Below are positions 14,230 to 63,907 of a stretch of DNA of 64,000 nt, piece after piece. The notes beneath the pieces were generated by a model. The model saw only the letters and a list, made by a program, of their open reading frames with translations, had not been told where the DNA came from and did no database searches. The DNA is taken from IMG/VR virus record IMGVR_UViG_3300025936_000020, positions 1-64,000 of that record, one strand, 5' to 3'. Within the stretch, counting starts at the first letter, position 1; every line of letters starts with the position of its first letter. A program made the translations under genes and the position numbers. Source of the DNA: a virus (taxonomy: Duplodnaviria; Caudoviricetes).

Positions 14230-15114
14230 ATGAGCCGAGTACTTATTTTGGGAGGAAGCGGATTCGTCGGAAGCGCGTTTGCGCGCGAGCTGGCTGCGCG
14301 AAGCGTGGACTTCAGTTCCTTGTCAAGGAACCAGTGCGACTACACAAACTTCGCCGCGATCTACAGCCTGATGAAGAAAGTCCGGCCGGAGCTGGTCGTC
14401 AACTGCTCCGGGGTGACTGGAACTCCGAACGTCGACTGGTGCGAGTTGCACCGCAAAGAAACCATCGCCGGTAATATCATCGCGGCGGCGGCAATCTCGG
14501 ACGCCTGCTACAACCTCGGGATCATTCTCGGGCACATTTCGACCGGCTGCATCTACAACGGCGAACGGCCGCTGGGCGCGCCGTGGACGGAGGAGGACCC
14601 GCCCAATTTCTGTTTCGGCGAGGAACCGTGCAGCTTTTATTCCGGCACCAAGGCGTTGGCCGAATGGAAGATCGCCGGAAACCCGCTGGCCTACATCTGG
14701 CGGTTGCGGATGCCGTTCTGCGAAGAGGCCGACCCGAAAAATCTGATCACAAAGCTGGTGACTTACCCCGCAATCTTCGATTCGCCGAAAAATTCCCTTT
14801 CCCACCTCGGCGAATGCGTCCGGGCCTGCCTGGACACCTGGGAGCTGGGCGTGAAGCGCGGGATTTACAACGTGGTCAACCCGGGGGCTCTGACAAACCG
14901 GGAGATCGTCGAGCTCATCTGCGAAATTCTGAAACCGAACCGCAGCTACGACGCTTGGGCTGATCAGATCCCGTTTTACAAGGAGCACGCGATGGCGCCG
15001 CGATCAAACTGCGTGCTTTCGTCCAAAAAACTCAGCGCGGCCGGGATAGAGCTGCGCCCGGTGTCGGAGGCGATGGCGGAAACGCTGAAGAACTACAAGC
15101 CGACCCCGCTATGA
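14230..15114 (+). CDS. NDP-4-keto-6-deoxyhexose 3,5-epimerase/4-reductase-like SDR (RmlD / NRS-ER type)
   Basis: GGSGFVG Rossmann motif, GVTGTPNVDWCE, STGCIY, YSGTK catalytic motif, WRLRMP...KNLITK. Confidence 0.85.
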   Translation: MSRVLILGGSGFVGSAFARELAARSVDFSSLSRNQCDYTNFAAIYSLMKKVRPELVVNCSGVTGTPNVDWCELHRKETIAGNIIAAAAISDACYNLGIILGHISTGCIYNGERPLGAPWTEEDPPNFCFGEEPCSFYSGTKALAEWKIAGNPLAYIWRLRMPFCEEADPKNLITKLVTYPAIFDSPKNSLSHLGECVRACLDTWELGVKRGIYNVVNPGALTNREIVELICEILKPNRSYDAWADQIPFYKEHAMAPRSNCVLSSKKLSAAGIELRPVSEAMAETLKNYKPTPL

Positions 15115-15878
15115 CCTTCGCCGCGACGATCGGAGCCTATGAACTCGCCAGTTTTGTGGAGCTGAACATCCGCGCGCTCCGCCGGGTGTTCGGAGATGAC
15201 CTGCCGATCCTTGTTTCAGACGATTTGAACCGGTATTCTGCTGAGATTCGGGACGTTGCCGCCCGTTTTGACGTGTTCCATTACTGTAGCGACACCCACA
15301 GAGGCCATTTTGCTGGCGACGTGAACCAGGCGTGCAACGCTTTGGCCTTCGCCAAGGCGCAAGGAGCTGACATCGCCCTAAAAATCAGCCAGCGCTTCAT
15401 CATGTGTGACCCAATTTGCAGGGAAATCCTCGAACGGTACTTCTCGGACCCTGAGGTATGGCTCGCCTTCCCTGGGAAGATTCACCCCAGCTCAATCAAG
15501 CGGGCCGAGTCTCGATTTTTCTCGAACTTCAGCACCGTGACCGACTTTTTTGCCGTCAGGCCGGACAAATTAAGCGCAGAGACAGTCAAAAACCTGTACG
15601 AGACGCGGGTGAAAGAGCAAAGGAACCGCTTTGACACCCTTGCCGAGCCATTGTGGGGATTCATCGGCGACGTCACCCTGGCCGGGCACACCATCCGGAT
15701 GCCCGAATTCAGCTCGCATTACCCCGGCAGACCGCCGATCTACCTGCGAAAATGCCAGCAGGAACCCGCCGATTACCAGGTATTCGCCCGGGAGAACGGG
15801 ATGGATGATTTCCTACCCCTTCTTGTAGAATGGCGGCAGATGAGCACCGCCTACCGTCCGAGCCCGATTTTCATATGA
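15111..15878 (+). CDS. putative GT-A fold glycosyltransferase
   Basis: LPILVSDD acidic motif, ALKISQRF; ATGA-coupled to the epimerase/reductase gene. Confidence 0.6.
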   Translation: MTFAATIGAYELASFVELNIRALRRVFGDDLPILVSDDLNRYSAEIRDVAARFDVFHYCSDTHRGHFAGDVNQACNALAFAKAQGADIALKISQRFIMCDPICREILERYFSDPEVWLAFPGKIHPSSIKRAESRFFSNFSTVTDFFAVRPDKLSAETVKNLYETRVKEQRNRFDTLAEPLWGFIGDVTLAGHTIRMPEFSSHYPGRPPIYLRKCQQEPADYQVFARENGMDDFLPLLVEWRQMSTAYRPSPIFI

Positions 15879-16066
15879 ACAACCAACTCACTGAAGCCGA
15901 GGTCCGCGCACTTCGCAATCGCGTGTTCGGACATCAAATCACCGACACCGAATGGAAAGTCGCCGGACCGCACTGGATGAGTCCGGAGGGGATCGCGTTC
16001 CTCCGGGCCCACGACTTCCCGATCGGGAAACCAGTCTATAATCCACAGGCTCAGAAAGCTTGCTGA
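15875..16066 (+). CDS. small hypothetical protein
   Basis: 63 aa, ATGA overlap with the upstream stop. Confidence 0.55.
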   Translation: MNNQLTEAEVRALRNRVFGHQITDTEWKVAGPHWMSPEGIAFLRAHDFPIGKPVYNPQAQKAC

Positions 16067-16221
16067 AAGCCAAGGAAGCTGCCGCCTCCGGTCGGAGGTT
16101 CGAAACCGAAATAATTTGTTGACGCCGCGGCCGGGGTTTTGGCAGGATTACAGGTGTTCTGAACGGGCGAGTCACCCTGGTCAGAGCTTGCACTTACGGT
16201 TGCCTTAGCGCATTATCACTT

Positions 16222-16373
16222 TGCGCCCGGTCTGTGGCGTGAGCCACGGCCCTGGCAGCATCCTTCCCGCTCGATGGGCGGACTAGGACCGGGCGCATTT
16301 CCCTTGCTCCAAGATGGTTTGGTCCGGATTCACCGCGTTTTCCGGAAACGGTCAGGTGAGCCACTTGGAGCAA
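16222..16373 (+). ncRNA. structured 5' leader of the replication initiator gene
   Basis: Perfect 11-bp stem 16222-32/16287-97 enclosing gtggc-GTGA-gccac; perfect 10-bp stem 16304-13/16364-73. Confidence 0.5.
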
Positions 16374-27853: not shown

Positions 27854-27977
27854 CTCCGGTAACAGGTTTCGTATCGTTCATCCGCTGACCTGAGAACTCA
27901 GTGCGATTTCGCTTGCGATGGGCTTCGGCCTGGCTCGTGCGTTCCCCAATGCACCGGTTCTCAGTCGCAAGCGAACT

Positions 27978-28810: not shown

Positions 28811-28836
28811 ACCAACAAAAACAGAAAGGAATAGCA

Positions 28837-29244
28837 ATGTCCCACTTATTAACCGCACCGCTCCGGATCAAGAGCATCCCCGATCTCAGGCGCGCCGCTC
28901 AAGCACTGGGCGGAGAGCTGGAGGAGTCGGCGGTGTTCACGTCTTACGAAGGGGAATACAACAAGTGCAACTATAGGATTAAGCTGCCGGGCGTCCGATA
29001 CCAAATCGGAATCCAGTTGCAGAAGCATGGCACGTATGCGATGGCGCATGACCCGTTCGGTTATCAGAATTCCATTCACGACGGGCATAAACTCGTCGAG
29101 AAATTCGGAGAGGGACTGCGCAAACTCTCCGAGGAATACACCGCCCAGGTCGTGACCACGCAGGCCAGAAAGAAGATCGGGTGGACCGTGGTTCGGAAGC
29201 GGTTGAAGAACGGCCGGCTGCAGCTTCGCATGGTCCACGCTTAG
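28837..29244 (+). CDS. DUF1257 / Ycf35-like protein
   Basis: MSHLLTAPLRIKSIPDLRRAAQALG...YQIG...YAMAHDP...YTAQVV...GWTV...NGRLQL. Confidence 0.7.
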   Translation: MSHLLTAPLRIKSIPDLRRAAQALGGELEESAVFTSYEGEYNKCNYRIKLPGVRYQIGIQLQKHGTYAMAHDPFGYQNSIHDGHKLVEKFGEGLRKLSEEYTAQVVTTQARKKIGWTVVRKRLKNGRLQLRMVHA

Positions 29245-29275
29245 GGAAAAACAAAGGCAAAAGAAAGGCATAGTT

Positions 29276-29467: not shown

Positions 29468-29469
29468 CC

Positions 29470-30041: not shown

Positions 30042-30054
30042 AAAGGATTTTGCA

Positions 30055-49051: not shown

Positions 49052-49052
49052 T

Positions 49053-49664: not shown

Positions 49665-50491
49665 ACCTTCAACGGCTCAATCGGATCCGACCAGCTCAAG
49701 CCGTATCCGTCAACGTCCAACTGGGTGACCGCGGTGCACGGCCTTGCGAAGATGTCGAGCGAATCAATCGACTGCCAGTAAGCGTCATCAAACGGGAGCA
49801 GCAGGTACTTCTCGTTCAGCCGGCGGAACAGGTAAAGGGTGAAGTGCCTGGACACATGGTTGCCGGTCCAGAAGAACCGCTTCTTCGTCCACCATTCCTT
49901 GAAGTGATCGGCCATCTCCGGAAAGCTGGACAGGGTGCAGATATTGTAGAACTTCTCCAGGGCAGCAAGGCCGCGGTCAACCATCTGCTTCGAAATCTCC
50001 GGCGTCATGCCCGATGCGTGGATGATGTCGCGCAGTGCCTGATCGAACTGAACCTGGTCGTTGAACAGCAGAAATCTGTCATGCCAGTTCGGAAGGCAAA
50101 CATCGATCTTCGGGTTCAGGCCGAACTGATAAATATTTTTCGCCCATTCCTTCGACGAGTTGAACATCCCGTACCAGGCGTAGTATTCGTGGACGTAAAT
50201 CTCGGCCGACTGCAACACTCCCAGGATCCTCGGGTCCTTCTCGCAGGCTTTGATCCGCGCTTCGAAATCAACCGTTTTTCCGCTCTCGTCCCAGTGCCAG
50301 TCGGTTGGATCGATCCGGTAAATGGTCAGTTGATTGCCAGACCTGAGGTTCCAGATGACCAAATAGTTCAACAACTGTAGGGTTCTGCAGCTCCCTAAAA
50401 TCAGAATCTTTTTAGGCCCTGAACCAGACCGGTAGTATCCATTCTGGAGCTGCTCCTTCTGTGTTTGGACTGTGCTGATAAATGAATTCAT
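49661..50491 (-). CDS. WcbI-like polysaccharide-modification protein
   Basis: ILILGSCR and FFWTGNHVS resemble WcbI motifs. Confidence 0.5.
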   Translation of the reverse strand: MNSFISTVQTQKEQLQNGYYRSGSGPKKILILGSCRTLQLLNYLVIWNLRSGNQLTIYRIDPTDWHWDESGKTVDFEARIKACEKDPRILGVLQSAEIYVHEYYAWYGMFNSSKEWAKNIYQFGLNPKIDVCLPNWHDRFLLFNDQVQFDQALRDIIHASGMTPEISKQMVDRGLAALEKFYNICTLSSFPEMADHFKEWWTKKRFFWTGNHVSRHFTLYLFRRLNEKYLLLPFDDAYWQSIDSLDIFARPCTAVTQLDVDGYGLSWSDPIEPLKV

Positions 50492-50964
50492 ACCGGATTC
50501 AGCCCCGCCCATTCACCGCGTCTTTCGAGAGCCGCCCTATTATAGGCGCGAGCCGCATCTTCTTCCACGGGGAATGTCCCGAGGTGTGTGCTTATGCCGT
50601 CCTGTTTGATAGCAGCCGCGTATCCCCACCGAGTTCTGTAAACCCCAAGAAACCTGGATGACGACCCTCTGGCAGAACTTTTGTTCCACTGGTTCTGCGT
50701 ATGCGTGCAGGCGACGATGTTTGCCCGCCAGTTGTGCAGGCCGTTATGATCTCGGTGGTGAACCTGTATTCGAGGGTCAGTCACGTTCAGCAAAAACCGA
50801 TGCATCCCTTGAATCTTCTGGTTGCCTTTGCCGTGACCGGTCTGCCGCGCTGCGTAAAAAGTCCACGGGTTTCTCATTGCGAACCAATTGTACTGTGCCA
50901 GCACCTCGAAGTCCTCGTCATCGACGATGGCGACTTGTCCTTGCGAAAGTTGTATTTCTCTCAT
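50488..50964 (-). CDS. HNH-AP2 homing endonuclease
   Basis: AIVDDEDF...HHRDHNGLHNWRANI...RFLGV...HLGTF..EEDAARAYN. Confidence 0.88.
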   Translation of the reverse strand: MREIQLSQGQVAIVDDEDFEVLAQYNWFAMRNPWTFYAARQTGHGKGNQKIQGMHRFLLNVTDPRIQVHHRDHNGLHNWRANIVACTHTQNQWNKSSARGSSSRFLGVYRTRWGYAAAIKQDGISTHLGTFPVEEDAARAYNRAALERRGEWAGLNPV

Positions 50965-51683
50965 GGCGGTAGGTGCTGTTTTAACAAACGCATCACCAGC
51001 GCGTCAACGCTTCTGTCCGGATCGTGTTTACACCGGAAGAAATATTGGTCGTCGGCTTTGGCGACGTCACCCCAGTCCACGAAGTCGAATCCCGGTTTTC
51101 CGCCGTAGGACAGGACGTTCCATCCGGTGTCCGTCTTGTTGATCGAACACATCTTTCCGTTGGACAGGACGTGGCCGCAGTCCTGGGCCAGCTCCGACAT
51201 CGCGACGTCCTCCATCAGGGTGTGGCGCCATTTGGCCTGCTGGCCGACGAGGTCTTCAACTACGTCGTGCGACATGATGTATTGCCCGCCGCCCCACATG
51301 AATGGGCGAAGCACCTGGCAATGGTAGGTCGGCAGGGCGACGATACCCTGCATGACACCGCGCTCTGGAAGGGACTGGCAATGATCCAGCAGGAGTCTCT
51401 TCCGGACATAGCAGCTTATGTTCGGGCGGGCCAGGTAATCGAACTGCCAGGTCTTTAACGCGTGGGCGAATGCAGCCAGGGTGATGCGCCCGACGAAGTT
51501 CAACTCGTCCGGAACCGAGAAGGAAAGGATCCGATCGGTGTCCCCGCCGGTTGGTCTGCCGGTGTAATACACGGTCCGGGTCCCTTCCAACGGTTCGGCG
51601 TCCCATGTTTCCATCGCCGTATCGATCATCTTCCGGTATGGTTCCTTCTTGGACGACAGGACGTAGATGAGGACAGTTTTCAT
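50961..51683 (-). CDS. putative glycosyltransferase
   Basis: TWDA...FDYLARPNISCYV...MWGGGQYIMS...MEDVAMS, similar to GT31/fringe-like patterns. Confidence 0.65.
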   Translation of the reverse strand: MKTVLIYVLSSKKEPYRKMIDTAMETWDAEPLEGTRTVYYTGRPTGGDTDRILSFSVPDELNFVGRITLAAFAHALKTWQFDYLARPNISCYVRKRLLLDHCQSLPERGVMQGIVALPTYHCQVLRPFMWGGGQYIMSHDVVEDLVGQQAKWRHTLMEDVAMSELAQDCGHVLSNGKMCSINKTDTGWNVLSYGGKPGFDFVDWGDVAKADDQYFFRCKHDPDRSVDALVMRLLKQHLPP

Positions 51684-51686
51684 TTT

Positions 51687-51944
51687 ATGAATCGAAAGCA
51701 AATCGCCGAGACACTCAAGAAGCACAACATCAAAGTCCTCTCAGTCGAGGAGTGCGCCAAGTGCGACTGGCATCTCTGCGTCGATCATCGGATGGCCGAG
51801 ACCGATGCGGAAGGCAAATGCTTCGTGTGCGGCAAGCCGGTCTTCTTCAAAGACAAGTTTCCCGAAGGCGGTCCTCAGCCCAAGAAGATCTGCATTCAAT
51901 GCGCTGTGGATTATTCGAGAGGCGAGAAGGCGTTCGGGGCATGA
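51687..51944 (+). CDS. Zn-finger protein (antisense island)
   Basis: CFVC...CIQC; promoter-like TTGGAC-17-GACAGT lies within the neighbouring gene. Confidence 0.7.
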   Translation: MNRKQIAETLKKHNIKVLSVEECAKCDWHLCVDHRMAETDAEGKCFVCGKPVFFKDKFPEGGPQPKKICIQCAVDYSRGEKAFGA

Positions 51945-51954: not shown

Positions 51955-52170
51955 ATGAAAAACTACACCCTTCGAGAAACGCTTATTGTGATCTCACAGC
52001 TGATCGGATTCGTTTGGTTGCTGCACATCGACATGCGGCTGTGTTTGATCATGTATTTGATCAATCCGGAAGTAATTCTAAAGCGCCAGCCTCCGGAGCC
52101 TCCGACCCACCCGCGGCCTTGCCAGAACAGGCCTGAGCAGGTTCCTGGTTCGCCGCCCTCTGGCCAATGA
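51955..52170 (+). CDS. small membrane protein (uncertain)
   Basis: Hydrophobic segment; overlaps the end of the giant gene. Confidence 0.4.
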   Translation: MKNYTLRETLIVISQLIGFVWLLHIDMRLCLIMYLINPEVILKRQPPEPPTHPRPCQNRPEQVPGSPPSGQ

Positions 52171-55100
52171 CCGGCTCCTGAACGATGACCGAACCGGCCT
52201 CGGTGCCAGCGACAGCGTTCCTTGGCCGCCCAGTCCAACCACGCCAGGTCCCGCTATAAACCCTCCCAGCGCTGCCGACCGTGGCAGACCCGCACGTAAC
52301 CCTCCAGCACCGGCAATCGCCGCTCTGGCACCCCCTGCCGCCCCGCCTCCACCCCCACCGTAACGACTCGCAAGTTCTTCGAAAGCCGAATTGGCCTTGT
52401 CCACTGCTTCCCTGCCGGCCGGTTTCAGCCGGGAATACACCAGATCCCGTTCTTCATCGGTCAGCCTGCGCGAAAACACTGCAGATTCCGGAGCTCGGGT
52501 CCGGATGGCGGATACGATCGCTTGTTCCGGATTCGGGATTCCGAGCGCCGTTGCCTGGGCCACAGCCCTTTGAAAGACTTCGTCAGCCGTGCCCCAATCA
52601 CCGGCCATCGCCGCATTCAGGATGGCGTTGTAAAGCGGGGTCATCGGCGTGGCCCTGATATCGCTTCCGGACGCTGGCTGCCTGCGCCGCGCTTCCAGGC
52701 TATCCGGCGTGGCTGCCCTGAGCGCATTGCTGGCGTTCCTAAGATCAACCAGACCTTCGCGGCCCGGCAACCGGTTGATGACGGCGCGCAGAGCCGGGTT
52801 GTAGCGCGCGAGCAGATCCAGCGTCGGGCCCGTGTAATCCCCGCTCTGCCACATCTTCGCAGCCGCTCCGGCCAGGTCGGTCGCAAGATTGTAGAGGAAG
52901 ACCGGGTTCCGGTATCCGAGCTTCCCGGGCGTATCGGTAAACATCTTGATCGCGCTGCCGATCATTCCCCAATAATTCGCAGATATGGAGGTCAGGATCT
53001 TCAGCCGTTCTTCGTCCGTTTCCGCATCCCAAAACCCGGGCGTGTTGGCCAGCGTATTGTAGAGCGCCTGGTTCACCTTCTGGCCTGCCGTCGTTCCAAA
53101 GAGGGAGGCTACTGCGGTAGCCGTCAGGAACCCGAACACGGCGGGCAGGTAACGGGCGGCGTAGGTCTTCTGGCCGCGAACCTTGGAATACAAATCCCGC
53201 ATCCTATCCGTGTTCCAGAGCCACCATTGGCTCAAGACTCCAAGCATCTGCCGCTCCCTGCTGCCCATGAAAAACGTTGGCCGGGTGTTCGGCGTGGCCA
53301 TGTTCGCGTCTTCGGCCAATGTGAACTGGAGCGCCCACCGTTGGCCGGGTGTCATGAAAGCCGCGTTGCGGTCCCCGTTCGCGTTCCTCTGGTTCCACCA
53401 ATACTTCAGCATCACCAGATCCACCGGATCATTGTTTCGCGTGAACATCCGCCGGATCATCACCGCGGCCTTCCGCACGTTGAGCGGGTTGTACCGGCCA
53501 GTCAGCTCGGCCGGGGTAAGCATGATCCCGAGATGATGCTCGCCCAGCAGGTGCAGGGAGAACTGTTTGAAGTTGTTCCCGTATTGTTCGTAGAGTTGCC
53601 GAAACTTTGGATCGGATTCCAGGCGCGCGTCGAAGGATCGGATGGCCCTCTTGCGCAGCATGTCGGCGATGGAGTTGCTGATGGCGATTGCCTGGACGTT
53701 GATCGAATTATCCACCTGCCGCATTCCAACCTTGCGCCACAGCGCGGCCCATCCCCTTGGCAGCATTCCCAGCCGGCCAAAGATTTCGGAGCGCAGGCTC
53801 AGGTTCGGCTCGGCGCGGATGTCCCGCAGCGCATCCAGCGATCCGCGAAGGTTCTGGAGCAACGGCCGTTCCCTGTCCCAACCAAGCGCGTCCTTGTAAT
53901 CGTAGGCGTCGATGACCCCTGATCTTCGCATCTGTTCCCAGTCCTGAATGTCCGCAAGCAGACCGGTGAACTGTTCGGCCACAGGCTCCATCGCGTCGGT
54001 CATCAGGCTTTTCATGATCCGTTCGCGGTCGGTCTTCGGAACAAACTGCCGCTGCACGGCGCGCATGAACGTCTTAACGTGATTCTTCAGGAGCGTGGGG
54101 CCTGCCCTCAGCCAGCCTCCGCGCATGACTTCGGCCAGCTTCATCGCCCAGGTCACTTCGCCGGATGCCCGGTTAACAATCCATGTCGTTGGCGAAAGCA
54201 GCACCGTTCCGACTGAGGCGTCGAACATGGGCTTGGCCAACTGGCTGATAAGATCGTCTCCGTAGAATTCCTCGCGCCTGCGGATGATGTCGTTGAAATT
54301 ACCGAGAAGTTTTCCAACCCGATCAATGTTGGCATTGAGTTCCTCGAGCGTCATTTGGTGGCGTTGGAGCAACGACGGGCCTTCTTCACCGATTCCTTCT
54401 GTGACCACCTTCGCGGCTTTCATCCGCGTTCCCACCGATTCGTTTCCGTAGACTTCGTTCAGCGTTCCCAGCAGCTTCCTTTTCTCCTCCAGCAAAGCGT
54501 TCTCCACCAGCTTCAGGTAATCACGAACCCGCACCACATACGGTTCCAGCGCGTTGTTCCCCTTTCGGATCACATCGATCGGGTCGGTTATCCCGTAGCG
54601 ATACAGGGATCCAGGCGCCACCTTGCCTCCGCGCGCCTGGGTGTATTCGTTCTCGTAGGAGACGATCCCGACCCTGGCCGAGGTCTCCTTCTTTTCGTTA
54701 TCCTCCTGCATCTTTCGCATGTAGCCTGAGACTTCCTCGATCAGGGCCCTCCGGACATCCCCGGCGGTGGCCGGCATCTCCATTTCCCCCAGGTGCATGT
54801 TGTGGAGATCGGCGACGAACTGCGACAGGTCCTGGATGTTGGTCGGCATTTGGTTGTTTGCCATCAACTCCTGCTCATCCTGCCGGATCCGTTTGTAATC
54901 GCTGGCGAACCGTCCCTTGCCGAGCATCACGTAGTCGCGATCGTCTTCAAGGACATGGCCCAGGACCAACTTGATGAAGTTGTCGTTCTGGTTCAGGAAC
55001 GTGTCCACGTTGTTCCGCTCGACAGCCAGCTTCCACTGGGCCGGCAGCGCCCTGGATTCGTCGGTGAGGTAGCGGGTTGTTGTTCCCGGGCCCCTGGACA

Positions 55101-58100
55101 GCGCGAGCCTCAGGACATCCATGCTGCGCTCCTTGCGCCCGGGCACGGCAGGCTCCTTGACCATCGTCTGGAACTCGCGCACAGCCGGGATCTTCTCAGC
55201 CCCGCCGCTCAGTTTGATCAGGCGCTGGTCGTAGCCGTACTGGCTCTTTACGGCCTTCATGTCCTCGGCCGTGATGACGTGGCCCCATCCGCCGATTCGG
55301 TCGCCTTCCCGATAAACGATCTGCCCGAAGTGCTGCATCGAATCGATGATCGGCCCGGCCACTTCATCGCGCCATTGCCGCAGCGTCTTGACGTCGTCCT
55401 TCAATCCGTTAGTGTGCGAGCGCAGGGCGATCAGGTTGTCGTTGAGCATCCGGTTCCTGAACACGCGCGCGATCTCGTATTCGGTTTTGACCGCGGAGGC
55501 AAAAGCCCCAAGGGCGCGGGTGGTTTGCGCCGGAAGGATTCCCGGGATCTTGGACAGGTTGCTTTCCACCAGCAGGAAGTATTTCAGCTTGGTGATTTCC
55601 TTGATCGGATCGAAAATCGGGTCCTTCAGGATGTCGAAGTTCGGGTTCAACGCCATCAGCGGGTGATACAAGTTCTCCTCAAAATGCCGCCACCATGCCG
55701 CCTTGAGCGGATCTGCGTCTGGACGATTACCGTACTCCAGACCTGCCTCGGCCAACTGTGCCATCATCTTCAGCGTTTCCTGGCTTTCACCCTTTTCAAA
55801 TCCGAGATTCAACCTGACTTCGTTCCCGGTCAGCGGATGCTTCAGCTTCACGATCCATCCGTCATCGGTTCGCTCCATGCCAGATATCGCGCCAGTCGTC
55901 TCCTGCATGGCCTTCTCGAAATCCTTGAGGGTTGGGTCGGTGGCATGCTGGTTGATGAACTCCACGCCTTGTTGCAGGTTATTTCGGCGCTCCTCGAGAT
56001 TGATTATCTTTCGGTTCAGACGATTGGAGGCGGAACGTAGCGCGTCGGCCTCGACCTGTGCCGTGGCATATTGCCTCAGGATGGAGTCAAAACCCCTCGG
56101 AACCCGGGCCCGAAGGTCGTTCAGGTATTCCGCGTTGAACCGGCGCAGCGTACCGTCGTCGGCCATGCGCGCTTCCAGGAGTTCTTGTTTCCAATCGCCG
56201 CACTGCCGAAGCATCCAGAGCGTTGCTTCGATGACGTCCTCGCTCGCCGCTATGACGTTGTCCCCGTCGGGATCGCGCATGCGGTCCAAGTGCCGAGCGA
56301 GCGCCCTCACCCATTCGGCCGGCGTCGCGAACACGCCGCCCTCGAATCCGCTGCGCGCGGATATGAGTTCTAGGACTTCTTCGCCGGGCCGTTCCTCGGT
56401 CAGGGCCCTTCTGCCGACAAGATCACTGATGTCGCGCAATGCGTGCGACATGCCCACGGGCGATCTCAGTAGATCATTGAGCGCATCCAGATGGTCAATC
56501 CCTTCACGTATGCGCTCATTGACCTGAGCGCCTTCTGCTGTCTTCTCACGCTCTTCCTTGATTTTATCCAAGACCTGTCCGAGGGAATTCGTAGCGCGCA
56601 CCTCCGCCTCGTTCGTTTCCGGGATGGCTTCGATGGCGTCCAGAGTTAACTGCTCCAGCTTCCTGTTCGCCGTTGCCAGCCGGTTCTTTATCTTCTCCTC
56701 GTCGGCCTTGAAGCCCTGCCACTCCATGAGGGCATAGCGGGAATAATCGGATTTCTCCTCCGGTGTAAGGTCCGGGTTCCGCATGACTTCGCGGAACGAT
56801 GGCCCGGCCTCTTCCTGGTGCGTGGCGATGCGGCCGCCGTAGAGATCCTTCAGTTCTTCGCGGACGCCCTCAGGCAAAGCTGCGAACCGACCAGCCGCCT
56901 CCGGGTTGATCAGGCCCTTGTTGAGCACGGACGCAATCTCATGGAACTTCTCCGGCGTCTCGGTTTCCTCAAGCGGCTCCAGGAACTTTTCGATCTTCTC
57001 CGGCGACTCAAGCATCGCCTGTGGATCCCGGAGTTTTCCGTCGGGCGGCAGCACGTCGTAATTGCCCGACAAGATCTGCTTTCGCAAAGCGTCAGCCTGG
57101 GTGCGAAGACCCGGAACACTGCGCTTGATCGCTTCAATGATGACGCGGATCAGCTCCTTCACCTTCGCAACGAAACCGTCCTGAGCTGCCATCGCATCCT
57201 TGGCCTGGCCCCAAACCCCGATGCGTTCCTGGTTCCAGCGCTCGGTCAGCATGTGCGCGAAATACTCTTCCACGCTGGAGTACCGATACAGCTCGCGGTT
57301 GATGCCTGCGTCAATGAACTGGCGAACGCTATATTCGGATGCGGCCAGTTTCTTCAGATCCTCAAGATCCTTTCCGGTGGCCGTCTTCATCTCGCTGGCA
57401 ATGGCCTCGTCGCGCCAACGCTTCAGGTTGTTCAGATCCTCCTGCTTCAGCATTTCGAATAACGGATGGAAGAACTCATGCGCGCCGCTCAAGGGATCGC
57501 CGGTGCGGGTCATCTCGATGAGCTGCCGGGCCGTATCGTAGCGCGCGTCAAGGTTTCGCAGATAATCCACCAGCCTGAACCGGATCGGGCGCGCTGTGAA
57601 ATACTGCATGACCGGCGAGTCCAGCATGGCCCTGAGCACGGCCTTGGATTCATCGGGAAGGCCGTTTCTTGGATCATCGACCAACCTTCTGGCATCTTGG
57701 AGGTTCGCCTCTTGCGGTCCGCGAGTCACAGAATCTTCAAAAAATTCACGCTGTAATGCGAGGTCTCCGAGCGCTTTTATTACCTCCTGTTCGTTCAGAC
57801 CTTTGGCCTTTAACCAGGCCATGTAACGTTCCGGATTATCGACACGATCAAATCCTGCGATTGGCACGTTGCCGCGCCCTTGAATTTTCACGGTCGGAAT
57901 TAATGCGCCGCGCTCGCTCACTCCCCGCTGCAACTCATCCATCACTGCCCTCGCGCCTGCAATGTTGTCTCTGGCATAGTCCTTAAGCGGATGGCGCGTC
58001 AAAAACCACGCTATGTCCTCGGGCTTATAACCGAGGATCGCGCCGTGCAGATATCCCCACGCTGGCATCAATTCCCGCGTGTATCTGGCGACGTTCAACA

Positions 58101-61100
58101 GGGCCATTCTACGCTTCGCTTCAGCGGCGTTCTCCGGCTTATAGAAATAGACGTTGCCTTTACCGAATCTGTCCGTTCCTTTTTCAAGGACCAATCCCAA
58201 CTCCTGCGCGAGTCTCAGCCCTTCTCGGGCGCCTACCTCTGTTCCCAATTCCACGTACCCGAAAATGCGTTCTCCATTGGCCACAGATTCAACGGCGGCT
58301 TCTGCGTGCGAAAGACCTTCAGGCGGTTCCGGGCCAAATGTTCCTTTCTTACCCAAAGCCTTTAGCTCGGCATCGGATAACTTCAGCAGATCGAAGAACG
58401 GAAGAAGTTCTCGCGCCAATTCTGGAGTCACGCCTCTGCCGATCATTCCCTGCTCCCCAAACCCTCCCGGCGTCTCCTTCCTTACCCGAAGTTCATTGAG
58501 CATGAGATCGATCGCCTGGGCCTGTTTTTCAGGCGTTGTGATGTTGCTTTTGGGATCGATCTGGAATTCTTTCTGGGCGGCGATCGCTGCTCGGACTCTG
58601 CCCCAAAATTCTTCGCTCAACTGTTCCGCCGGTTTGTCCAGAAGATCGTTGAACAGCTCCGGATGATCCTTCAGGAGGTTGTCAAAGGTCCGTTTGACGA
58701 TGCCGGACATCCGGCTGATATAGCGCGGTTCGGCGGTTACGATGTTGCCGACCGTTCCTTCTTCTCCAGCCGGCTGATCAAGGCTTACATTTCCGGTTAC
58801 AGTCGTGCGCGGTCTCCCTGGCTGAGGCACGGTCCCGGCCGGTGTCTTGGTAGTAACGCCCCTGATCGTGTCGATGTCCCGGCTGGTGAAGTATTCGTTT
58901 TCACCGGAAGCGTTCCGGTTAGCAAACCTGCGCTCGTTGTTGGAGAGAAAGGCGAGGATTGCCCGCTTGTCGAACCACGCGCCCCCAGGAAGTTTGCCCC
59001 ACGATCCAGTTGGAAGTTCTGATAACGGAATCCGGTACGAGTAATGTTTCCCGCGCAGGAAATTCAGGAACCCGGCGGACGCACCAGACGGATTGTAGAG
59101 CATCCGCGCGGGCTTGATGTCGCCACTGTGCGGTTGAGGAGCCGGATGACGCCGCATCCGTTCCAGAGGAAACTCAGGAAGATCGATGGCCTGGTTGTTT
59201 TTGACTTCCATCCTGGCCGCCTTGTTCTCGGCGAGTTCCCTGGCGAGACCGGTGTTGAAGATGAACTCGTCAACCGGCGTGTCCACGTTCTCGATCTCTC
59301 CCGGCAGAGCAGCATCGGCCGTTGTTTCCTTCTCGGTGAGTCGAGGAACTTTAGACGGCTTGGCCAGAGGCTTTGGCGGATACAGCGCGTTCAGCCGGGT
59401 GACGATGTAATCTGACGACGGGCCAATGAAGTATGTCACCCCTCCGGATCCATCCACCCTCCGGATCTTCAGCCTCCCGGTGGCCTGGTTGTAGGCGTTG
59501 CGCCACGGTTTGCCTCCGCCAACAGCGGGTTCGTAAACGTTTCCTTTCCAGATGATCTTCCCGTCCTGCGTCACGGTCAGGCGCAACTTGACGGGTTCGT
59601 TGGCCTCAACGATCCGGCCGTCACTCAGTTGAATGATCGGACGCCCATTCTCGTCCTTGGTGTATTGCCCGACGTAACCGTAGAGCTCTACGATGTCGCC
59701 TTCCTTCGCTTCCGGGAGCGGGACCTGGACGACTTCTTCACGGGCAACCCCGCCGCCTCGTGCGCCAGCTTCCGCGCCACCGACATCGGCGGGCACTTTC
59801 CCCGCGCCTTCCGTCGTCCCTCCGGGCTGCTGCACAGTCCGAACAGGCCTTTCTGTTTCGATGTGTACGGCACTTGGAACCTCCGTTGTTGTTGGTGTCG
59901 GTTGCGTAATTCCAACCGGCGTTCGAACTTCCTCTTGAGCGAATTGGGCGGCAAGTCGGCGCAGTGGTGAAGCCGCTGGAATATCCCGCCTCAGCGCGCG
60001 CCTGAAGTCCCGTTCCAGAACTTCTCTTTGCGGTTCAGGAATGGCGGGCGGGCCTGCTGGCCGAATCGGGATTACTCCAGCCCGCATAGCAGCCGCAGTG
60101 CGCTCCTCGGGAACCTCCAATGTCTGCAATGTTTCCCGAAGGTTCCTGAAATTGACCTTCTGCAGCTCCCGCTTCAGCCGATCTGTCTCGATCAGGATGT
60201 CGCGCTCGTACTCGGCCGGGTGCCCGCGCGCATAGCCGATCACCCTGGGCACAGCGAACAGGAGGATGTTGCCGACGTTCTCCGCTATGGCATCGGCGAT
60301 CTGGTCGTCCTTTCCCTGCCTGACCATCTCTGCGTACTCGGGCAGGCTAATGACTTGGGTGGCGGCCTGCATGAGCGCCTGGTCGACGACCGTCTCGATG
60401 GCTTTCTGCGCGACTGGGCTTCCGGAAGCGCCAAGCTTATTGATCAAAGTCGCGGCCGTCGGCTTCACCCAGGTCCCGACCAGCGGGTACAGCGCGCCGA
60501 TGGTCGCCGCCTTGAGAGCTTCATATTCGGACCCGGTGCGTTCGTAGGCTTCCGCTCCGAACAGGCCGGAATAAACGGCGGCAGGCGGCAGCTTCGTGAC
60601 GCCGGAGATCACAGCTCCGGCTGCGAGCGTTGGGGCGGTTTTGACGGCCGAGATGCCTCCCCTGGTCAGGGCCGCGGAAACACCGGGAACCTGTTGAAGA
60701 TCCCGCTCCAGAGGTGTCGGTTCGTATGTCGTGAGAGCGCTCCGGACGTTCTCGAGAGTCGGGGGCTGACCTGTTTCCGGATAGGCTGCTCCAAGGCCGA
60801 TGTCCTCCACTGCGCCAGCGGCTACGTTGCCAAGACCGCGAAGCCCCCGGAAGAACGTGCCCAATGGATCAAACCGCATAACCAGGTCAGGAACGGCGGT
60901 TTGGGTGGCTAGGAGATTTTTCTGCTGCCAAAGATCCTGCCTGCGCTGATCCCTGGCTAAGGCCTCGTCGAAGTTGGCGCTGCGCCCGATCGCGTCAAGA
61001 TCGATTGGGGCGGGAGGAGGCGGAGGTTCAGGAACACCGGTGAGCGAGGGTTCCTGGTCAGATCCAATCGCGGTCCCCTCGACGGTTCCAGCTAATCGCC

Positions 61101-61131
61101 CGATCCTCTCCAGGTCCAGGGTGTCTGGCAT
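52078..61131 (-). CDS. giant (3017 aa) ejection/internal virion polyvalent protein with zincin-like metallopeptidase motif
   Basis: HEFFH (57466-57480) and downstream EEYFA; mostly helical; third of three abutting internal-protein-like genes. Confidence 0.8.
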   Translation of the reverse strand: MPDTLDLERIGRLAGTVEGTAIGSDQEPSLTGVPEPPPPPAPIDLDAIGRSANFDEALARDQRRQDLWQQKNLLATQTAVPDLVMRFDPLGTFFRGLRGLGNVAAGAVEDIGLGAAYPETGQPPTLENVRSALTTYEPTPLERDLQQVPGVSAALTRGGISAVKTAPTLAAGAVISGVTKLPPAAVYSGLFGAEAYERTGSEYEALKAATIGALYPLVGTWVKPTAATLINKLGASGSPVAQKAIETVVDQALMQAATQVISLPEYAEMVRQGKDDQIADAIAENVGNILLFAVPRVIGYARGHPAEYERDILIETDRLKRELQKVNFRNLRETLQTLEVPEERTAAAMRAGVIPIRPAGPPAIPEPQREVLERDFRRALRRDIPAASPLRRLAAQFAQEEVRTPVGITQPTPTTTEVPSAVHIETERPVRTVQQPGGTTEGAGKVPADVGGAEAGARGGGVAREEVVQVPLPEAKEGDIVELYGYVGQYTKDENGRPIIQLSDGRIVEANEPVKLRLTVTQDGKIIWKGNVYEPAVGGGKPWRNAYNQATGRLKIRRVDGSGGVTYFIGPSSDYIVTRLNALYPPKPLAKPSKVPRLTEKETTADAALPGEIENVDTPVDEFIFNTGLARELAENKAARMEVKNNQAIDLPEFPLERMRRHPAPQPHSGDIKPARMLYNPSGASAGFLNFLRGKHYSYRIPLSELPTGSWGKLPGGAWFDKRAILAFLSNNERRFANRNASGENEYFTSRDIDTIRGVTTKTPAGTVPQPGRPRTTVTGNVSLDQPAGEEGTVGNIVTAEPRYISRMSGIVKRTFDNLLKDHPELFNDLLDKPAEQLSEEFWGRVRAAIAAQKEFQIDPKSNITTPEKQAQAIDLMLNELRVRKETPGGFGEQGMIGRGVTPELARELLPFFDLLKLSDAELKALGKKGTFGPEPPEGLSHAEAAVESVANGERIFGYVELGTEVGAREGLRLAQELGLVLEKGTDRFGKGNVYFYKPENAAEAKRRMALLNVARYTRELMPAWGYLHGAILGYKPEDIAWFLTRHPLKDYARDNIAGARAVMDELQRGVSERGALIPTVKIQGRGNVPIAGFDRVDNPERYMAWLKAKGLNEQEVIKALGDLALQREFFEDSVTRGPQEANLQDARRLVDDPRNGLPDESKAVLRAMLDSPVMQYFTARPIRFRLVDYLRNLDARYDTARQLIEMTRTGDPLSGAHEFFHPLFEMLKQEDLNNLKRWRDEAIASEMKTATGKDLEDLKKLAASEYSVRQFIDAGINRELYRYSSVEEYFAHMLTERWNQERIGVWGQAKDAMAAQDGFVAKVKELIRVIIEAIKRSVPGLRTQADALRKQILSGNYDVLPPDGKLRDPQAMLESPEKIEKFLEPLEETETPEKFHEIASVLNKGLINPEAAGRFAALPEGVREELKDLYGGRIATHQEEAGPSFREVMRNPDLTPEEKSDYSRYALMEWQGFKADEEKIKNRLATANRKLEQLTLDAIEAIPETNEAEVRATNSLGQVLDKIKEEREKTAEGAQVNERIREGIDHLDALNDLLRSPVGMSHALRDISDLVGRRALTEERPGEEVLELISARSGFEGGVFATPAEWVRALARHLDRMRDPDGDNVIAASEDVIEATLWMLRQCGDWKQELLEARMADDGTLRRFNAEYLNDLRARVPRGFDSILRQYATAQVEADALRSASNRLNRKIINLEERRNNLQQGVEFINQHATDPTLKDFEKAMQETTGAISGMERTDDGWIVKLKHPLTGNEVRLNLGFEKGESQETLKMMAQLAEAGLEYGNRPDADPLKAAWWRHFEENLYHPLMALNPNFDILKDPIFDPIKEITKLKYFLLVESNLSKIPGILPAQTTRALGAFASAVKTEYEIARVFRNRMLNDNLIALRSHTNGLKDDVKTLRQWRDEVAGPIIDSMQHFGQIVYREGDRIGGWGHVITAEDMKAVKSQYGYDQRLIKLSGGAEKIPAVREFQTMVKEPAVPGRKERSMDVLRLALSRGPGTTTRYLTDESRALPAQWKLAVERNNVDTFLNQNDNFIKLVLGHVLEDDRDYVMLGKGRFASDYKRIRQDEQELMANNQMPTNIQDLSQFVADLHNMHLGEMEMPATAGDVRRALIEEVSGYMRKMQEDNEKKETSARVGIVSYENEYTQARGGKVAPGSLYRYGITDPIDVIRKGNNALEPYVVRVRDYLKLVENALLEEKRKLLGTLNEVYGNESVGTRMKAAKVVTEGIGEEGPSLLQRHQMTLEELNANIDRVGKLLGNFNDIIRRREEFYGDDLISQLAKPMFDASVGTVLLSPTTWIVNRASGEVTWAMKLAEVMRGGWLRAGPTLLKNHVKTFMRAVQRQFVPKTDRERIMKSLMTDAMEPVAEQFTGLLADIQDWEQMRRSGVIDAYDYKDALGWDRERPLLQNLRGSLDALRDIRAEPNLSLRSEIFGRLGMLPRGWAALWRKVGMRQVDNSINVQAIAISNSIADMLRKRAIRSFDARLESDPKFRQLYEQYGNNFKQFSLHLLGEHHLGIMLTPAELTGRYNPLNVRKAAVMIRRMFTRNNDPVDLVMLKYWWNQRNANGDRNAAFMTPGQRWALQFTLAEDANMATPNTRPTFFMGSRERQMLGVLSQWWLWNTDRMRDLYSKVRGQKTYAARYLPAVFGFLTATAVASLFGTTAGQKVNQALYNTLANTPGFWDAETDEERLKILTSISANYWGMIGSAIKMFTDTPGKLGYRNPVFLYNLATDLAGAAAKMWQSGDYTGPTLDLLARYNPALRAVINRLPGREGLVDLRNASNALRAATPDSLEARRRQPASGSDIRATPMTPLYNAILNAAMAGDWGTADEVFQRAVAQATALGIPNPEQAIVSAIRTRAPESAVFSRRLTDEERDLVYSRLKPAGREAVDKANSAFEELASRYGGGGGGAAGGARAAIAGAGGLRAGLPRSAALGGFIAGPGVVGLGGQGTLSLAPRPVRSSFRSRSLARGRRTRNLLRPVLARPRVGRRLRRLAL

Positions 61132-61135: not shown

Positions 61136-62260
61136 TCAGGGAATTGTTAATGGGCTGGTTGCAGCGCCGACCCTTGGAACATATCTTCCCCTGCCGGCTT
61201 TGACGAATTGATCGACCATCACCTGGTACGCGATTGCCTTCTGCCTGTCACCTCCCTGGACCATCGGAAGCTCGCGGACGATGATCGCTGAATCTTCTGG
61301 AAGGAGGAGCACGTCGCGGTTTGGACCGGCTGCATGACGGACAGCGCGAACTCCGGGACTCAGATATTCGACCGAAGGCGTGGCAGGTGCGGCAGGTGCA
61401 CCGGTCGTTGTTGTCGTCGGCGTGGCGGTTGCGCCGAACACCGTCGGCATCGCACCGACCATAACGGCTTTGAACATATCTCCAACGCCGCTGCTTGAAG
61501 TCGTTGGAGCCGGAAGATCCCGGACAGTGATCGATTGGTCCTCCGGAAGAACACCAACCGGAGTGGGCACAGCATTTGTGGTCACGCCAAGAGCAGCCGG
61601 GTTGTTGGTCGGTATGACGAGATTACCAGATGCGTCCAGTTGGGCCGGTCTGAACGTCTTGGTCTTTGGGTCGGGAATGACGAGCTGAAGATCTTTGTCT
61701 TTGTCAGTAATCAACTTTCTGAGCACGCTGTTGTAGGTGTCCGTCTCTACCTTGAGCCGCTTCGGATTGTTCGGATCAGCCCATGTATCCTCGAGTTCCT
61801 TCATCGAGCCGGGCCAGAGGCCGTTGAACCACATTGATTTTCTGTCGGCCTCCTTTTGTGCGGCAAGATTAGTCTCCAAGGCAGAGTCGTACGCGGCCTT
61901 GTACCTGGCTGCGGCGGCTTGTGCCGCGGCGTTGACTGAGGAAATCCTGATTTTCTCCGGATCAGCTTCGTAAAGCTTGAGCTGCCGGTCGATCTGGCTC
62001 TGCCGGACTTTCTCGGCATCCTGTCTGGCCTCAAACTCCCGTTCCCTGAACAACCGGTTGTAGTCCTGATTCGCCCTGGCTTCTTCCAACTGCTCCTGGG
62101 CAAGCTGCGACTGAGCGCCGATCTGCGCCCGTGCTATGGAGCCTGCAGCAGCCCTGGCCGCCGCTTCACGATCCGCCTGGCGCTGCGCGAATTCGCGCGT
62201 GAACAGGGCGTCGATCGCCGGATGCGTGCTGGCGAAGGGTTGAATGTCGTAGGCTGCCAT
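61136..62260 (-). CDS. putative ejection/internal virion protein
   Basis: Ala/Gln-rich coiled N-terminus and Thr/Pro-rich C-terminus; upstream of the giant gene. Confidence 0.65.
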   Translation of the reverse strand: MAAYDIQPFASTHPAIDALFTREFAQRQADREAAARAAAGSIARAQIGAQSQLAQEQLEEARANQDYNRLFREREFEARQDAEKVRQSQIDRQLKLYEADPEKIRISSVNAAAQAAAARYKAAYDSALETNLAAQKEADRKSMWFNGLWPGSMKELEDTWADPNNPKRLKVETDTYNSVLRKLITDKDKDLQLVIPDPKTKTFRPAQLDASGNLVIPTNNPAALGVTTNAVPTPVGVLPEDQSITVRDLPAPTTSSSGVGDMFKAVMVGAMPTVFGATATPTTTTTGAPAAPATPSVEYLSPGVRAVRHAAGPNRDVLLLPEDSAIIVRELPMVQGGDRQKAIAYQVMVDQFVKAGRGRYVPRVGAATSPLTIP

Positions 62261-62263
62261 AGA

Positions 62264-63334
62264 TCAATTCCGCGCTGTTGGCGTCGGCGATGTCCACGGA
62301 TTTTGGATTGTGTATGGGCTTCGGGTGCCGTACATCCTCGCAAAATAAGCGAGCATGTCTCCGTATCCCCCACCCCCACCTCCACCACCGACGTACGGCC
62401 TGCTGTCGTACTCGTAGCCTGGAATGCTCAAATCTTCAGCGTTGGCCCTGTCTGCCGCAGCAGACGACATCCACTTGCCGGCGCCCTTTGTTCCGGCAGG
62501 ACCGCCTCCGGCAACGCCCATACCGCCCAGCATGCCGCTGCCGTACGCGCGCTCGTAGAGATCCAGGACGTCAGAGACTTCGTTGTAGATGCCGGACTGG
62601 ACTTCGTTGAACCCGCGCGCGATGCGTTCCGCGCGGCCCGGCTGCCGGTAATACGCACGGTTGAGGTCCTCCTGGCCGGCCACGTCCTTGAGCAGGCCGA
62701 GATTCGCCGCGACATCCGATCGGGCCAGGCGGGTAGGTTCGAGATAACGCAAGGCCGGAATGTCCAACTGCCGGTACTGTTCGCCGCTGCCGATGATTCC
62801 GAGCCGGTTCAGGAGGTTCTGTTGTTCCAGATTCCCGGCCGTTCCGTAGGCGGCTGTCGAATATCCGAGAAGGTTCGGGACGGCCTGGGATGCCAATGCT
62901 TGGAGAGTACGGTCCTGGAGGAGTTGATCGTAAGTTCCGGTCCCCTGGTTGCCGTATCCGGCGCGCGCCTGAGCCGCCTTGCGTTGCCGAACCAATTCGT
63001 TCAGGGCAGGATTGATCAGAAAGTTTCCCAGCGCGTCCTGGTTCAGATGCAGAATGTCGGCGTAGGACTTGGTTGGGTCGTAAGCGCCGGTCGCGTACTG
63101 GTTCAGAAAGTTCAGGTTGCCGGAAGCGATCCGCCGGGCTTCAGGAGTATTCGCTGCGTAGGCGGCCAGGTAATCCGATTTGCCGGCAGGTGAAGCGCCG
63201 ACATCGTACTCGTTCCAGATGTTGTTGAGCCTGGCCTGTCGCGACGGATCGACGGTCGTGTAGCGAATGTCCGGACGATCCGATCTGAAGGCGCCAGCGA
63301 TTGCACCAGGGATGCTATTACCAGGCATGATCAA
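62264..63334 (-). CDS. putative ejection/internal virion (pilot-type) protein
   Basis: GAIAGAF N-terminus, RQRKAAQARAGYG segment, Gly-rich C-terminus. Confidence 0.65.
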   Translation of the reverse strand: MIMPGNSIPGAIAGAFRSDRPDIRYTTVDPSRQARLNNIWNEYDVGASPAGKSDYLAAYAANTPEARRIASGNLNFLNQYATGAYDPTKSYADILHLNQDALGNFLINPALNELVRQRKAAQARAGYGNQGTGTYDQLLQDRTLQALASQAVPNLLGYSTAAYGTAGNLEQQNLLNRLGIIGSGEQYRQLDIPALRYLEPTRLARSDVAANLGLLKDVAGQEDLNRAYYRQPGRAERIARGFNEVQSGIYNEVSDVLDLYERAYGSGMLGGMGVAGGGPAGTKGAGKWMSSAAADRANAEDLSIPGYEYDSRPYVGGGGGGGGYGDMLAYFARMYGTRSPYTIQNPWTSPTPTARN

Positions 63335-63337
63335 TCC

Positions 63338-63907
63338 TTACGCTTTAAGTTGCGGTGCCGCAATGGGTTTTTTCACGAACCAAGACAGGCACTCGCAGAG
63401 GACCGGCTTCAAACTCTCCTTCTCGCAGAACTTCGTCACCGCAGTTTGGACCCCGCATTTGAAGTGCGGATCATCCCTGTCGTAATAATCGTGCCCTCCA
63501 AAGATCGCGCCTGGCTTCACTTTCGGCCACCAAAGGCGGATGTCCCGGGTGATGTTTTCAAGGTTGTGATTGGCGTCCAGATACACGAAATCCAGCGATT
63601 CGGCGGCGAACATCCTGGAGGCCTGCTCGGAGGTTTCGCTTATGAAGAACTTGTTCTGGTAGGGCTGGAGTCTTGCCACAGCCAGACGCCTGGCCTCCTC
63701 GTAATCGACCATGTTGGTGCAGTCGGTATAGACATCATCGGGCCACCGGACGTATGGATCGACCAGGAACAATCGGGCGCACTGCCATCGCTGAAGGATC
63801 TTTTCAGCGTTCTCCCCATAGAGCACCCCAATCTCTGCTCCGTCGCCATGCAGTTCCATTGAATTGAGCAGGTCACCGATCTGGTCCCGGTGCGTTATGT
63901 CCATCAT
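63338..63907 (-). CDS. class I SAM methyltransferase (Methyltransf_24-like)
   Basis: GAEIGVLYG, FLVDPY, LDFVYLDANH, GGHDY. Confidence 0.85.
   Translation of the reverse strand: MMDITHRDQIGDLLNSMELHGDGAEIGVLYGENAEKILQRWQCARLFLVDPYVRWPDDVYTDCTNMVDYEEARRLAVARLQPYQNKFFISETSEQASRMFAAESLDFVYLDANHNLENITRDIRLWWPKVKPGAIFGGHDYYDRDDPHFKCGVQTAVTKFCEKESLKPVLCECLSWFVKKPIAAPQLKA

Follow-up and report, generated by a model that had tools for sequence, protein, structure and literature searches.

An uncultured soil phage encodes a modular enzyme set predicted to build an O-methylated, carbon-branched deoxysugar glycan

We analysed the first 64 kb (hereafter the window) of the 74,141-bp single virus record IMGVR_UViG_3300025936_000020, the genome of an uncultured soil phage with 57.6% GC that is labelled G000 in our comparisons, and found in it ten genes for making, transferring and modifying sugars. 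The encoded enzymes belong to recognisable families and have intact motifs, GT-A folds are seen among the glycosyltransferases (GTs), and the genes are coupled, co-occur in relatives as modules and have homologues that are naturally fused to one another. We judge it probable, by a modest degree, that G000 carries a modular glycan-tailoring system that would draw on the nucleoside diphosphate (NDP)-glucose of its host, with the phage's own virion proteins as the favoured acceptor.

Enzyme set and gene layout

The genome, which is 95% complete by the CheckV estimate, encodes a large terminase, a primase-helicase, an integrase-family gene and tail-fibre-type proteins, and is organised into a plus-strand block of early genes (14230-49051) and a minus-strand block of late, structural genes (49053-74141 together with 1-14198). 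The sugar genes occupy three loci, namely the pair RED-GT1, the pair DH-CMT (DH and C-MT) and a convergent 6-kb island (45832-51725), with MT2 as an outlier:

14230-15114 (+): RED, NRS/ER-type (UDP/dTDP-L-rhamnose-synthase-like) 3,5-epimerase/4-reductase, 294 amino acids (aa), first gene of the plus-strand block
15111-15878 (+): GT1, GT-A-fold transferase, 255 aa, start overlapping the RED stop by 4 nt (ATGA)
35237-36229 (+): DH, NDP-glucose 4,6-dehydratase, RmlB-like (extended short-chain dehydrogenase/reductase), 330 aa, Pfam Epimerase 3e-45
36202-37464 (+): C-MT, NDP-hexose 3-C-methyltransferase of the TylC3/MtmC/TcaB9 type, 420 aa, overlapping DH by 28 nt
45832-46620 (+): GT2, GT-A-fold transferase, 262 aa, invariant E91-S-D93
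46968-47699 (+): GT3, DUF6492/Stealth-like transferase, 243 aa, invariant D89-S-D91
49053-49664 (-): OMT, MycE/TylE-like sugar O-methyltransferase, 203 aa, catalytic domain only (Methyltransf_24)
49661-50512 (-): WcbI-like protein, putative glycan O-acyltransferase, 283 aa
50961-51683 (-): GT4, GT31/Fringe-like GT-A transferase, 240 aa counted from Met15
63338-63907 (-): MT2, Methyltransf_24 methyltransferase, 189 aa, PF13578 4.4e-11

All ten open reading frames (ORFs) are present at these positions with a GC3 bias of the coding type, and Pfam, PDB and structure searches place each in the enzyme class proposed for it by an earlier model's reading of the letters and their translations (the sequence-only reading). 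That reading had counted five loci; the count comes down to three loci plus MT2. The GC content of the sugar genes (0.53-0.59 each) is like that of the genome (0.576), and there is thus no compositional sign of recent import.

Among the sugar-nucleotide enzymes, DH has only dTDP-glucose 4,6-dehydratases as its best PDB matches (best 6e-47, with full-length alignments to ten such structures), and its motifs GxxGxxG (GGCGFISSH), T-D-E (GTDEEYG) and YxxxK (YSASK) are intact. It scores 240.6 bits against the TIGR01181 equivalog, under the cut-off of 365.1, and is a divergent RmlB member whose nucleotide could be dTDP or UDP. C-MT has a three-domain architecture (Methyltransf_13/23/14 in Pfam) consisting of a zinc domain (PF08421, 1.7e-15), an S-adenosylmethionine domain (PF13489, 1.8e-15) and a C-terminal sugar domain (PF08484, 4.1e-22), and aligns end to end with MtmC (PDB, 4e-61) as well as with TcaB9 and KijD1. 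Its four-Cys site CRACG...CKNCC is aligned to CRMCG...CRSC of MtmC and the IYHEH stretch is identical; we take these Cys residues to form the zinc site and Y-H-E-H to belong to the active site, as in TcaB9. The enzyme is predicted to methylate C-3 of an NDP-4-keto-6-deoxyhexose, and its alignment may also be compatible with C-5 methylation of the NovU kind. Such a sugar C-branching enzyme is almost unknown in phages: C-MT has matches in 7/50,697 GenBank phage records, mostly of huge uncultured phages, and positions 35000-38000 have no DNA match among GenBank phages.

RED has as its best PDB match the Arabidopsis NRS/ER enzyme (4qqr, 4.5e-39, residues 4-284), followed by mimivirus L780 (7jid, 2.9e-21), whereas its best RmlD match reaches only 3.5e-12 and covers only the N-terminal half. 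TGC(107), YSGTK and ITK are aligned with both 4qqr and 7jid, the six RED homologues of related phages all have the corresponding S/T-G-C, YxxxK and (I/L/F)-x-K motifs, and the Cys and Lys are presumably the acid/base pair proposed for epimerisation. An NRS/ER-type enzyme has no full-length match in the 50,697 GenBank phage records. In line with the earlier assignment of RED to this type, no PF00908 (RmlC) match was found in the genome at E <= 1 (control positive in 11/14 genomes). RmlA and a sugar aminotransferase are likewise absent from the genome, and the phage encodes no nucleotidyltransferase; host NDP-glucose must therefore be the starting point of the pathway, and RED the source of epimerisation. 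Since no 2,3-dehydratase was matched in the genome either, in a search that lacked a working control (no match anywhere, controls included), and there is no aminotransferase, the sugar presumably keeps its 2-OH.

GT-A-type evidence was obtained for all four transferases, at the family level only for GT3, which bears out the GT-like character attributed to them before. None of the four, GT1 included, has a sequence match among the GenBank phage records, and GT1, GT2 and GT4 have no Pfam, PHROGs or NCBIfam match at usual thresholds. An AlphaFold (AF2) model of GT1 built from 44 homologues (predicted local distance difference test score, pLDDT, 94.1) matches SpsA, GnT-I and GpgS in Foldseek, and in a structural all-against-all comparison (VIA) its top match is domain 1 of PBCV-1 A064R (2p6w, Z 14.7, rmsd 3.4, 190 residues), which is statistically tied with GT8 enzymes; the top 18/18 VIA rows are GTs. 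A064R domain 1 is the β-L-rhamnosyltransferase of the chlorovirus capsid glycan (PMC9614988). The AF2 model of GT2 (pLDDT 93.5) matches the GT6 family in Foldseek and Manic Fringe (Z 12.6), B3GalT6 (12.3) and A064R (12.0) in VIA, so that GT6, Fringe and GT31 are nearest.

GT3 scores 23.3 bits against PF20102 (DUF6492; cut-off 22.9) and 24 bits (4.7e-5) against Stealth_CR2, below the 39.4 cut-off, while the Stealth regions CR1, CR3 and CR4 were not detected in it; many of its homologues carry PF20102 or Stealth_CR2. Because its profile matches the Stealth catalytic domain of GNPTAB (1.5e-4; CpsY at 0.047) and its homologues are DUF6492/Stealth_CR2 proteins, GT3 may transfer a sugar-1-phosphate rather than a sugar. 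GT4, whose start is probably Met15 (51683), has 389 relatives, and a profile built from 44 of them matches B3GalT5 (5.5e-13), C1GalT1 (4.4e-11) and also B3GalT6; PF01762 is carried by 31/44 of these relatives, and the ESM feature score to phage Galactosyl_T clusters is 0.98. A PDB search with the single GT4 sequence gave no match, and no close GT4 relatives were found in IMG/VR. Some of the GT4 relatives are fusion proteins: in P0179, homologues of GT3 (33% identity) and GT4 (43%) form a single protein, P0186 and P0246 have a GT4-type domain fused to a Methyltransf_24 domain, and in P0319 and P0244 such a domain is fused to a 4,6-dehydratase.

Of the tailoring enzymes, OMT matches MycE (3ssm, 2e-12, MycE residues 199-328) and TylE (8ia9, 8.9e-11) in the PDB; it covers only the C-terminal half of MycE, lacking the N-terminal auxiliary domain of the ~400-aa MycE/TylE enzymes, and no close relatives of it were found in IMG/VR. 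The WcbI-like protein scores 12.5 bits (E 0.12) against PF18588, below the cut-off of 29.2, and had no match in a single-sequence PDB search; predicted structures in the ESM Atlas relate it to WcbI clusters (TM 0.67 and 0.63, feature score 0.94), a similarity that supports a shared fold only. MT2 has no PDB match, and the annotation of its homologues varies between O-methyltransferase and DNA methyltransferase, the latter being the PHROGs label; its membership in the glycan pathway is conjectural.

The island contains GT2, GT3, five small ORFs (67-136 aa, 47696-49051, plus strand, between GT3 and OMT), OMT, the WcbI-like gene, an HNH/AP2 gene and GT4. The last four of these overlap one another on the late strand, where they immediately follow the gene for a late virion-type protein of 3017 aa (52078-61131, minus strand) that has no tblastn match in the 50,697 GenBank phage records; its counterpart in the relative G004 has 3669 aa at 48% identity. 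The GT2 start is overlapped by the gene for a 227-aa protein (45167-45850, plus strand) whose N-terminus weakly resembles KOW and whose tail is of low complexity, rich in Pro, Ala and Lys; it has the same position in contig L138 (94% identity) as well as in G004 and could be an acceptor or adaptor. The HNH/AP2 gene interrupts the GT4-WcbI-OMT operon, overlapping its neighbours, and its homologues lie at other positions in relatives:

50488-50964 (-): HNH/AP2-type homing-endonuclease-like gene, AP2 domain E 0.016, not part of the pathway

Two further HNH-type homing-endonuclease-like genes are found in the window (737-1732, minus strand, and 27918-28574, plus strand). Ten ORFs of the early region yielded next to no matches in Pfam.

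Relatives, mosaic composition and the DH-CMT pair

G000 has no DNA-level resemblance to any GenBank phage and all its relatives are metagenomic, the contigs having come from rhizosphere samples. GT1 homologues occur in 16/16 related IMG/VR contigs, several of them 55-80 kb long, 13 of which were fetched in full and compared with every G000 protein. RED is present in 6/13 of these relatives. It adjoins GT1 in two of them (G003 and G004); in another two (G013 and G016) its neighbour is a dehydratase located by the terminase. GT2, GT3 and the WcbI-like gene occur together in G004 and G006, in the latter as one cluster with GT1 (GT1-GT3-GT2-WcbI). By contrast, C-MT, OMT and GT4 are found in 0/13. 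The expectation that the enzymes co-occur in relatives is borne out only in part: the closest near-complete relative, G004, contains RED, GT1, GT2, GT3 and the WcbI-like gene, but not DH, C-MT, OMT, GT4 and MT2. In G004, the WcbI-like gene is preceded by a non-homologous FkbM methyltransferase gene (PF05050 1.9e-20; L041:425-1093, plus strand) that overlaps its start, a non-orthologous replacement of the MycE-like OMT in which the methyltransferase/WcbI pairing is kept. In relatives that lack C-MT, plain rhamnose is the likely ancestral product.

DH-CMT is a mobile unit. The genes that flank it in G000 are adjacent to each other in G004, which identifies the pair as an insertion. A metagenome scan with C-MT recovered DH-CMT from about nine G000-like soil contigs of closer kinship, where it occupies the same site (C-MT identity 62-84%), and also from an unrelated lineage consisting of G001, a complete 59.8-kb phage, and three relatives. 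In this lineage the pair always resides inside a cluster of p307, a GT9/GT2 fusion, DH, C-MT, a GT and a methyltransferase. Apart from this pair, a fibre/lectin block (76-93% protein identity) is all that G000 and G001 have in common, which suggests a common host and the exchange of host-specific modules. The fibre/lectin-like block lies at 3355-8070 (minus strand) in the window and at positions 28820-33986 in G001.

No related prophage was found when the GT1 alignment and C-MT were searched against genome contigs (one genome per species, 185,579 species), and the genome contains no tRNA genes; these prophage and tRNA searches did not yield a host for G000. Outside the sugar loci, a Cas4/PD-(D/E)XK nuclease homologue (DUF2800) is encoded at 41917-42768 (region of interest 41258-42768); the G004 version is uninterrupted (295 aa), and the upstream part in G000 may be split.

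Proposed pathway, acceptor and alternative explanations

The order of dehydratase, C-3 methylation, bifunctional epimerase/reductase, GT-A transfer and O-methylation, outlined in the sequence-only reading, is supported by the enzyme inventory, and we propose the following scheme, in which substrate, step order, sugar stereochemistry and acceptor are predictions. First, DH would convert host NDP-glucose into NDP-4-keto-6-deoxy-glucose. Second, C-MT, encoded by the overlapping gene, would place a methyl group on C-3. Third, RED would epimerise C-5 at least and reduce C-4 to yield NDP-6-deoxy-3-C-methyl-L-hexose, the simplest product given that the three sugar-nucleotide enzymes fit end to end, or a plain L-rhamnose nucleotide whenever C-methylation is skipped. 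Fourth, the GT-A enzymes GT1, GT2 and GT4 and the Stealth-like GT3 would assemble a short glycan. Finally, the MycE-like OMT would O-methylate this glycan and the WcbI-like protein would probably O-acylate it.

As in mycobacteriophages and chloroviruses, the acceptor could be virion proteins of the phage itself, and we favour virion glycosylation over host-surface remodelling on three grounds. First, OMT homologues lie beside GTs in mycobacteriophages, and GT/O-methyltransferase sets of this type are reported to act on capsid and tail tube (PMC11600133, PMC4351075). Second, GT1 belongs to the core genes of this phage group. Third, part of the set is co-oriented with the late genes. We also count for a virion target that the structure ranked first for GT1 is the rhamnosyltransferase domain for the chlorovirus capsid.

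Several points weigh against this scheme. Half of the sugar genes are in the early-strand block, apart from the structural genes. The late proteins show no clear enrichment of any sequon-like Ser/Thr tripeptide and contain only short Ser/Thr/Pro patches. The substrates of known C-3 methyltransferases are mostly 2,6-dideoxy or 3-amino sugars, such that use of a 2-hydroxy substrate by C-MT is an assumption, and RED cannot epimerise C-3 once C-3 is methylated. As to the metal-binding DXD motif that follows strand 4 in GT-A enzymes, GT2 has its E-S-D and GT3 its D-S-D, but GT1 has K-I-S-Q-R in place of a canonical DXD motif, and GT4, likewise without a canonical DXD, has R-x-N-x-S where GT31 enzymes carry DDD; both may be metal-independent or use another metal arrangement. 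G004 lacks DH, C-MT, the MycE-like OMT, GT4 and MT2, and the closest fragment, G002, has GT1 without RED beside it, the gene set being a mosaic of modules and not one conserved pathway. The chemistry proposed for this uncultured phage is a prediction from its genes.

Thr/Ser/Pro-rich patches were noted in the late proteins encoded at 61136-62260 (minus strand) and at genome positions 73214-74038 (minus strand), with the sequences ATATPTTTTTGAP and SKTTTTTASPE; these could be candidate O-glycosylation sites.

As the strongest contender, a serious if unlikely one, the methylated deoxysugar might instead be fed into host O-antigen, capsule or S-layer assembly on the cytoplasmic face, thereby changing the receptor and blocking superinfection or altering the surface of the infected cell. 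Such remodelling would fit the integrase-family gene of G000, the capsule enzymes to which WcbI and Stealth proteins are related, and the restricted overlap of G000 with G001, in that DH-CMT and the receptor-binding genes of the fibre/lectin block transferred with it may both be specific to the surface of one host; moreover, similarly organised cyanophage clusters have a long history of discussion as genes of host metabolism, not of the virion (PMC10611076). On the other hand, the species-level genome search returned no prophage copy, and no flippase, GT-C or Gtr/Oac-type membrane acyltransferase was found among the ~30 ORFs scanned with Pfam, a subset of the genome. In addition, GT1 is kept in every relative, like a core phage function, and the OMT relatives adjoin GTs in mycobacteriophages, and such GT/O-methyltransferase sets are reported to modify virions (PMC11600133).

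We regard it as more improbable still that the loci are independent accessory modules, with RED and GT1 performing simple rhamnosylation, DH-CMT separately draining or diverting the host dTDP-sugar pool and MT2 acting on DNA or protein. The presence or absence of each module does vary separately among relatives, DH-CMT is a clean insertion at a point where G004 has the two flanking genes next to each other, RED is missing from the G001 lineage despite its DH-CMT, and the annotations of MT2 homologues are inconsistent. However, outside the G000-like lineage DH-CMT adjoins GTs and a methyltransferase wherever its neighbours were examined, the fusions tie GT3, GT4, Methyltransf_24 and dehydratase types together, and the reactions of DH, C-MT and RED link up chemically without a gap.

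Glycosylation of a modified base in the phage genome, as a means to evade restriction, is very improbable: although phage GTs classically glucosylate hydroxymethylcytosine (PMC9614988) and the MT2 family is labelled 'DNA methyltransferase' in PHROGs, the enzymes resemble those of protein and polysaccharide glycans and the 95% complete genome, as anticipated in the sequence-only reading, lacks the prerequisites of the known base-glycosylation routes, with no thymidylate synthase (TS)-type hydroxymethylase (PF00303) or C5-cytosine methylase (PF00145), both searched with working controls, nor TET/JBP (PF12851), a weaker negative whose control matched in 3 genomes, none over the cut-off.

Returning to a virion-directed glycan, what is new here is the C-3 methyltransferase, the NRS/ER-type enzyme and the mobile DH-CMT unit, phage glycan cassettes themselves being already known. 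To our knowledge, virus-made glycans have been proven only in chloroviruses, mimiviruses and a few mycobacteriophages, and our literature search returned no paper linking phages with sugar C-methyltransferases. We therefore raise, tentatively and with doubt still outweighing confidence, the possibility that G000 would be the first virus shown to make a carbon-branched sugar, namely an O-methylated, vinelose- or nogalose-like 6-deoxy-3-C-methyl-L-hexose produced via a rhamnose synthase of the plant/giant-virus type and placed on the virion, with DH-CMT serving as a mobile 'glycan-editing' cassette among unrelated phages of the same host. If true, this would add to viruses a class of C-branched, O-methylated deoxysugars whose known members occur chiefly in antibiotics and in a few surface glycans of bacteria, and would extend the two-enzyme rhamnose route of the NRS/ER type to bacteriophages. 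The mobile DH-CMT pair offers a testable view of module swapping as a source of phage glycan diversity, and the gene set represents compact soluble enzymes for glyco-engineering.

Comparison with known systems

The mycobacteriophage sets (Corndog gp35-38; Che8, Myrna) are reported to modify capsid and tail tube (PMC11600133, citing Freeman 2023; PMC4351075). G000 resembles them in encoding soluble GTs together with an O-methyltransferase, part of the set being on the late strand, and its OMT shares 27-36% identity (about 30% in the best full-length matches) with methyltransferases adjoining GTs in McProf, Wildcat, Omega and others. Unlike G000, which has all three, the mycobacteriophage sets that we saw contain no dehydratase, C-methyltransferase or epimerase/reductase, and the G000 genes are spread over three loci.

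With giant viruses, G000 shares a two-enzyme route with an NRS/ER-type bifunctional enzyme, as in the UDP-L-rhamnose pathway of mimivirus (R141/L780; PMC9614988), although the sequence identity between RED and L780 is low. A further link is chlorovirus PBCV-1 A064R, which combines rhamnosyltransferases with a 2-O-methyltransferase (PMC9614988) and whose domain 1 is the best structural match of GT1. Giant viruses and the predicted G000 product are alike in that rhamnose-type sugars are subsequently O-methylated. However, G000 is a 74-kb bacteriophage with a dehydratase of the bacterial RmlB type and an extra C-3 methyltransferase, for which a branched sugar is predicted.

The metagenome-assembled Synechococcus phage DSL-LC02 (OR032571) encodes GMD, a C-methyltransferase, GDP-fucose synthase, several GTs and an FkbM methyltransferase in one operon; the paper on this phage does not mention the C-methyltransferase (PMC10611076). 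Its ORF140-142 region is like G000 in having a dehydratase, a Methyltransf_13/14 C-methyltransferase (27% identity), a bifunctional epimerase/reductase, GTs and a methyltransferase. The two differ in that DSL-LC02, a 168-kb myovirus, uses GDP-mannose chemistry (GMD, GDP-fucose synthase) from a contiguous operon.

Finally, the actinomycete pathways of MtmC, TcaB9 and KijD1 provide full-length homologues of C-MT with the zinc site and the YHEH motif, and have in common with G000 the order of dehydratase, C-methylation, ketoreduction and MycE/TylE-type O-methylation. MtmC belongs to the D-mycarose pathway, and nogalose is of the 3-C-methyl-rhamnose type. G000 differs from the actinomycetes in that no 2,3-dehydratase was seen (by the search lacking a working control) and no aminotransferase, the 2-OH presumably being kept, and in that the acceptor would not be a polyketide and the carrier is a virus.

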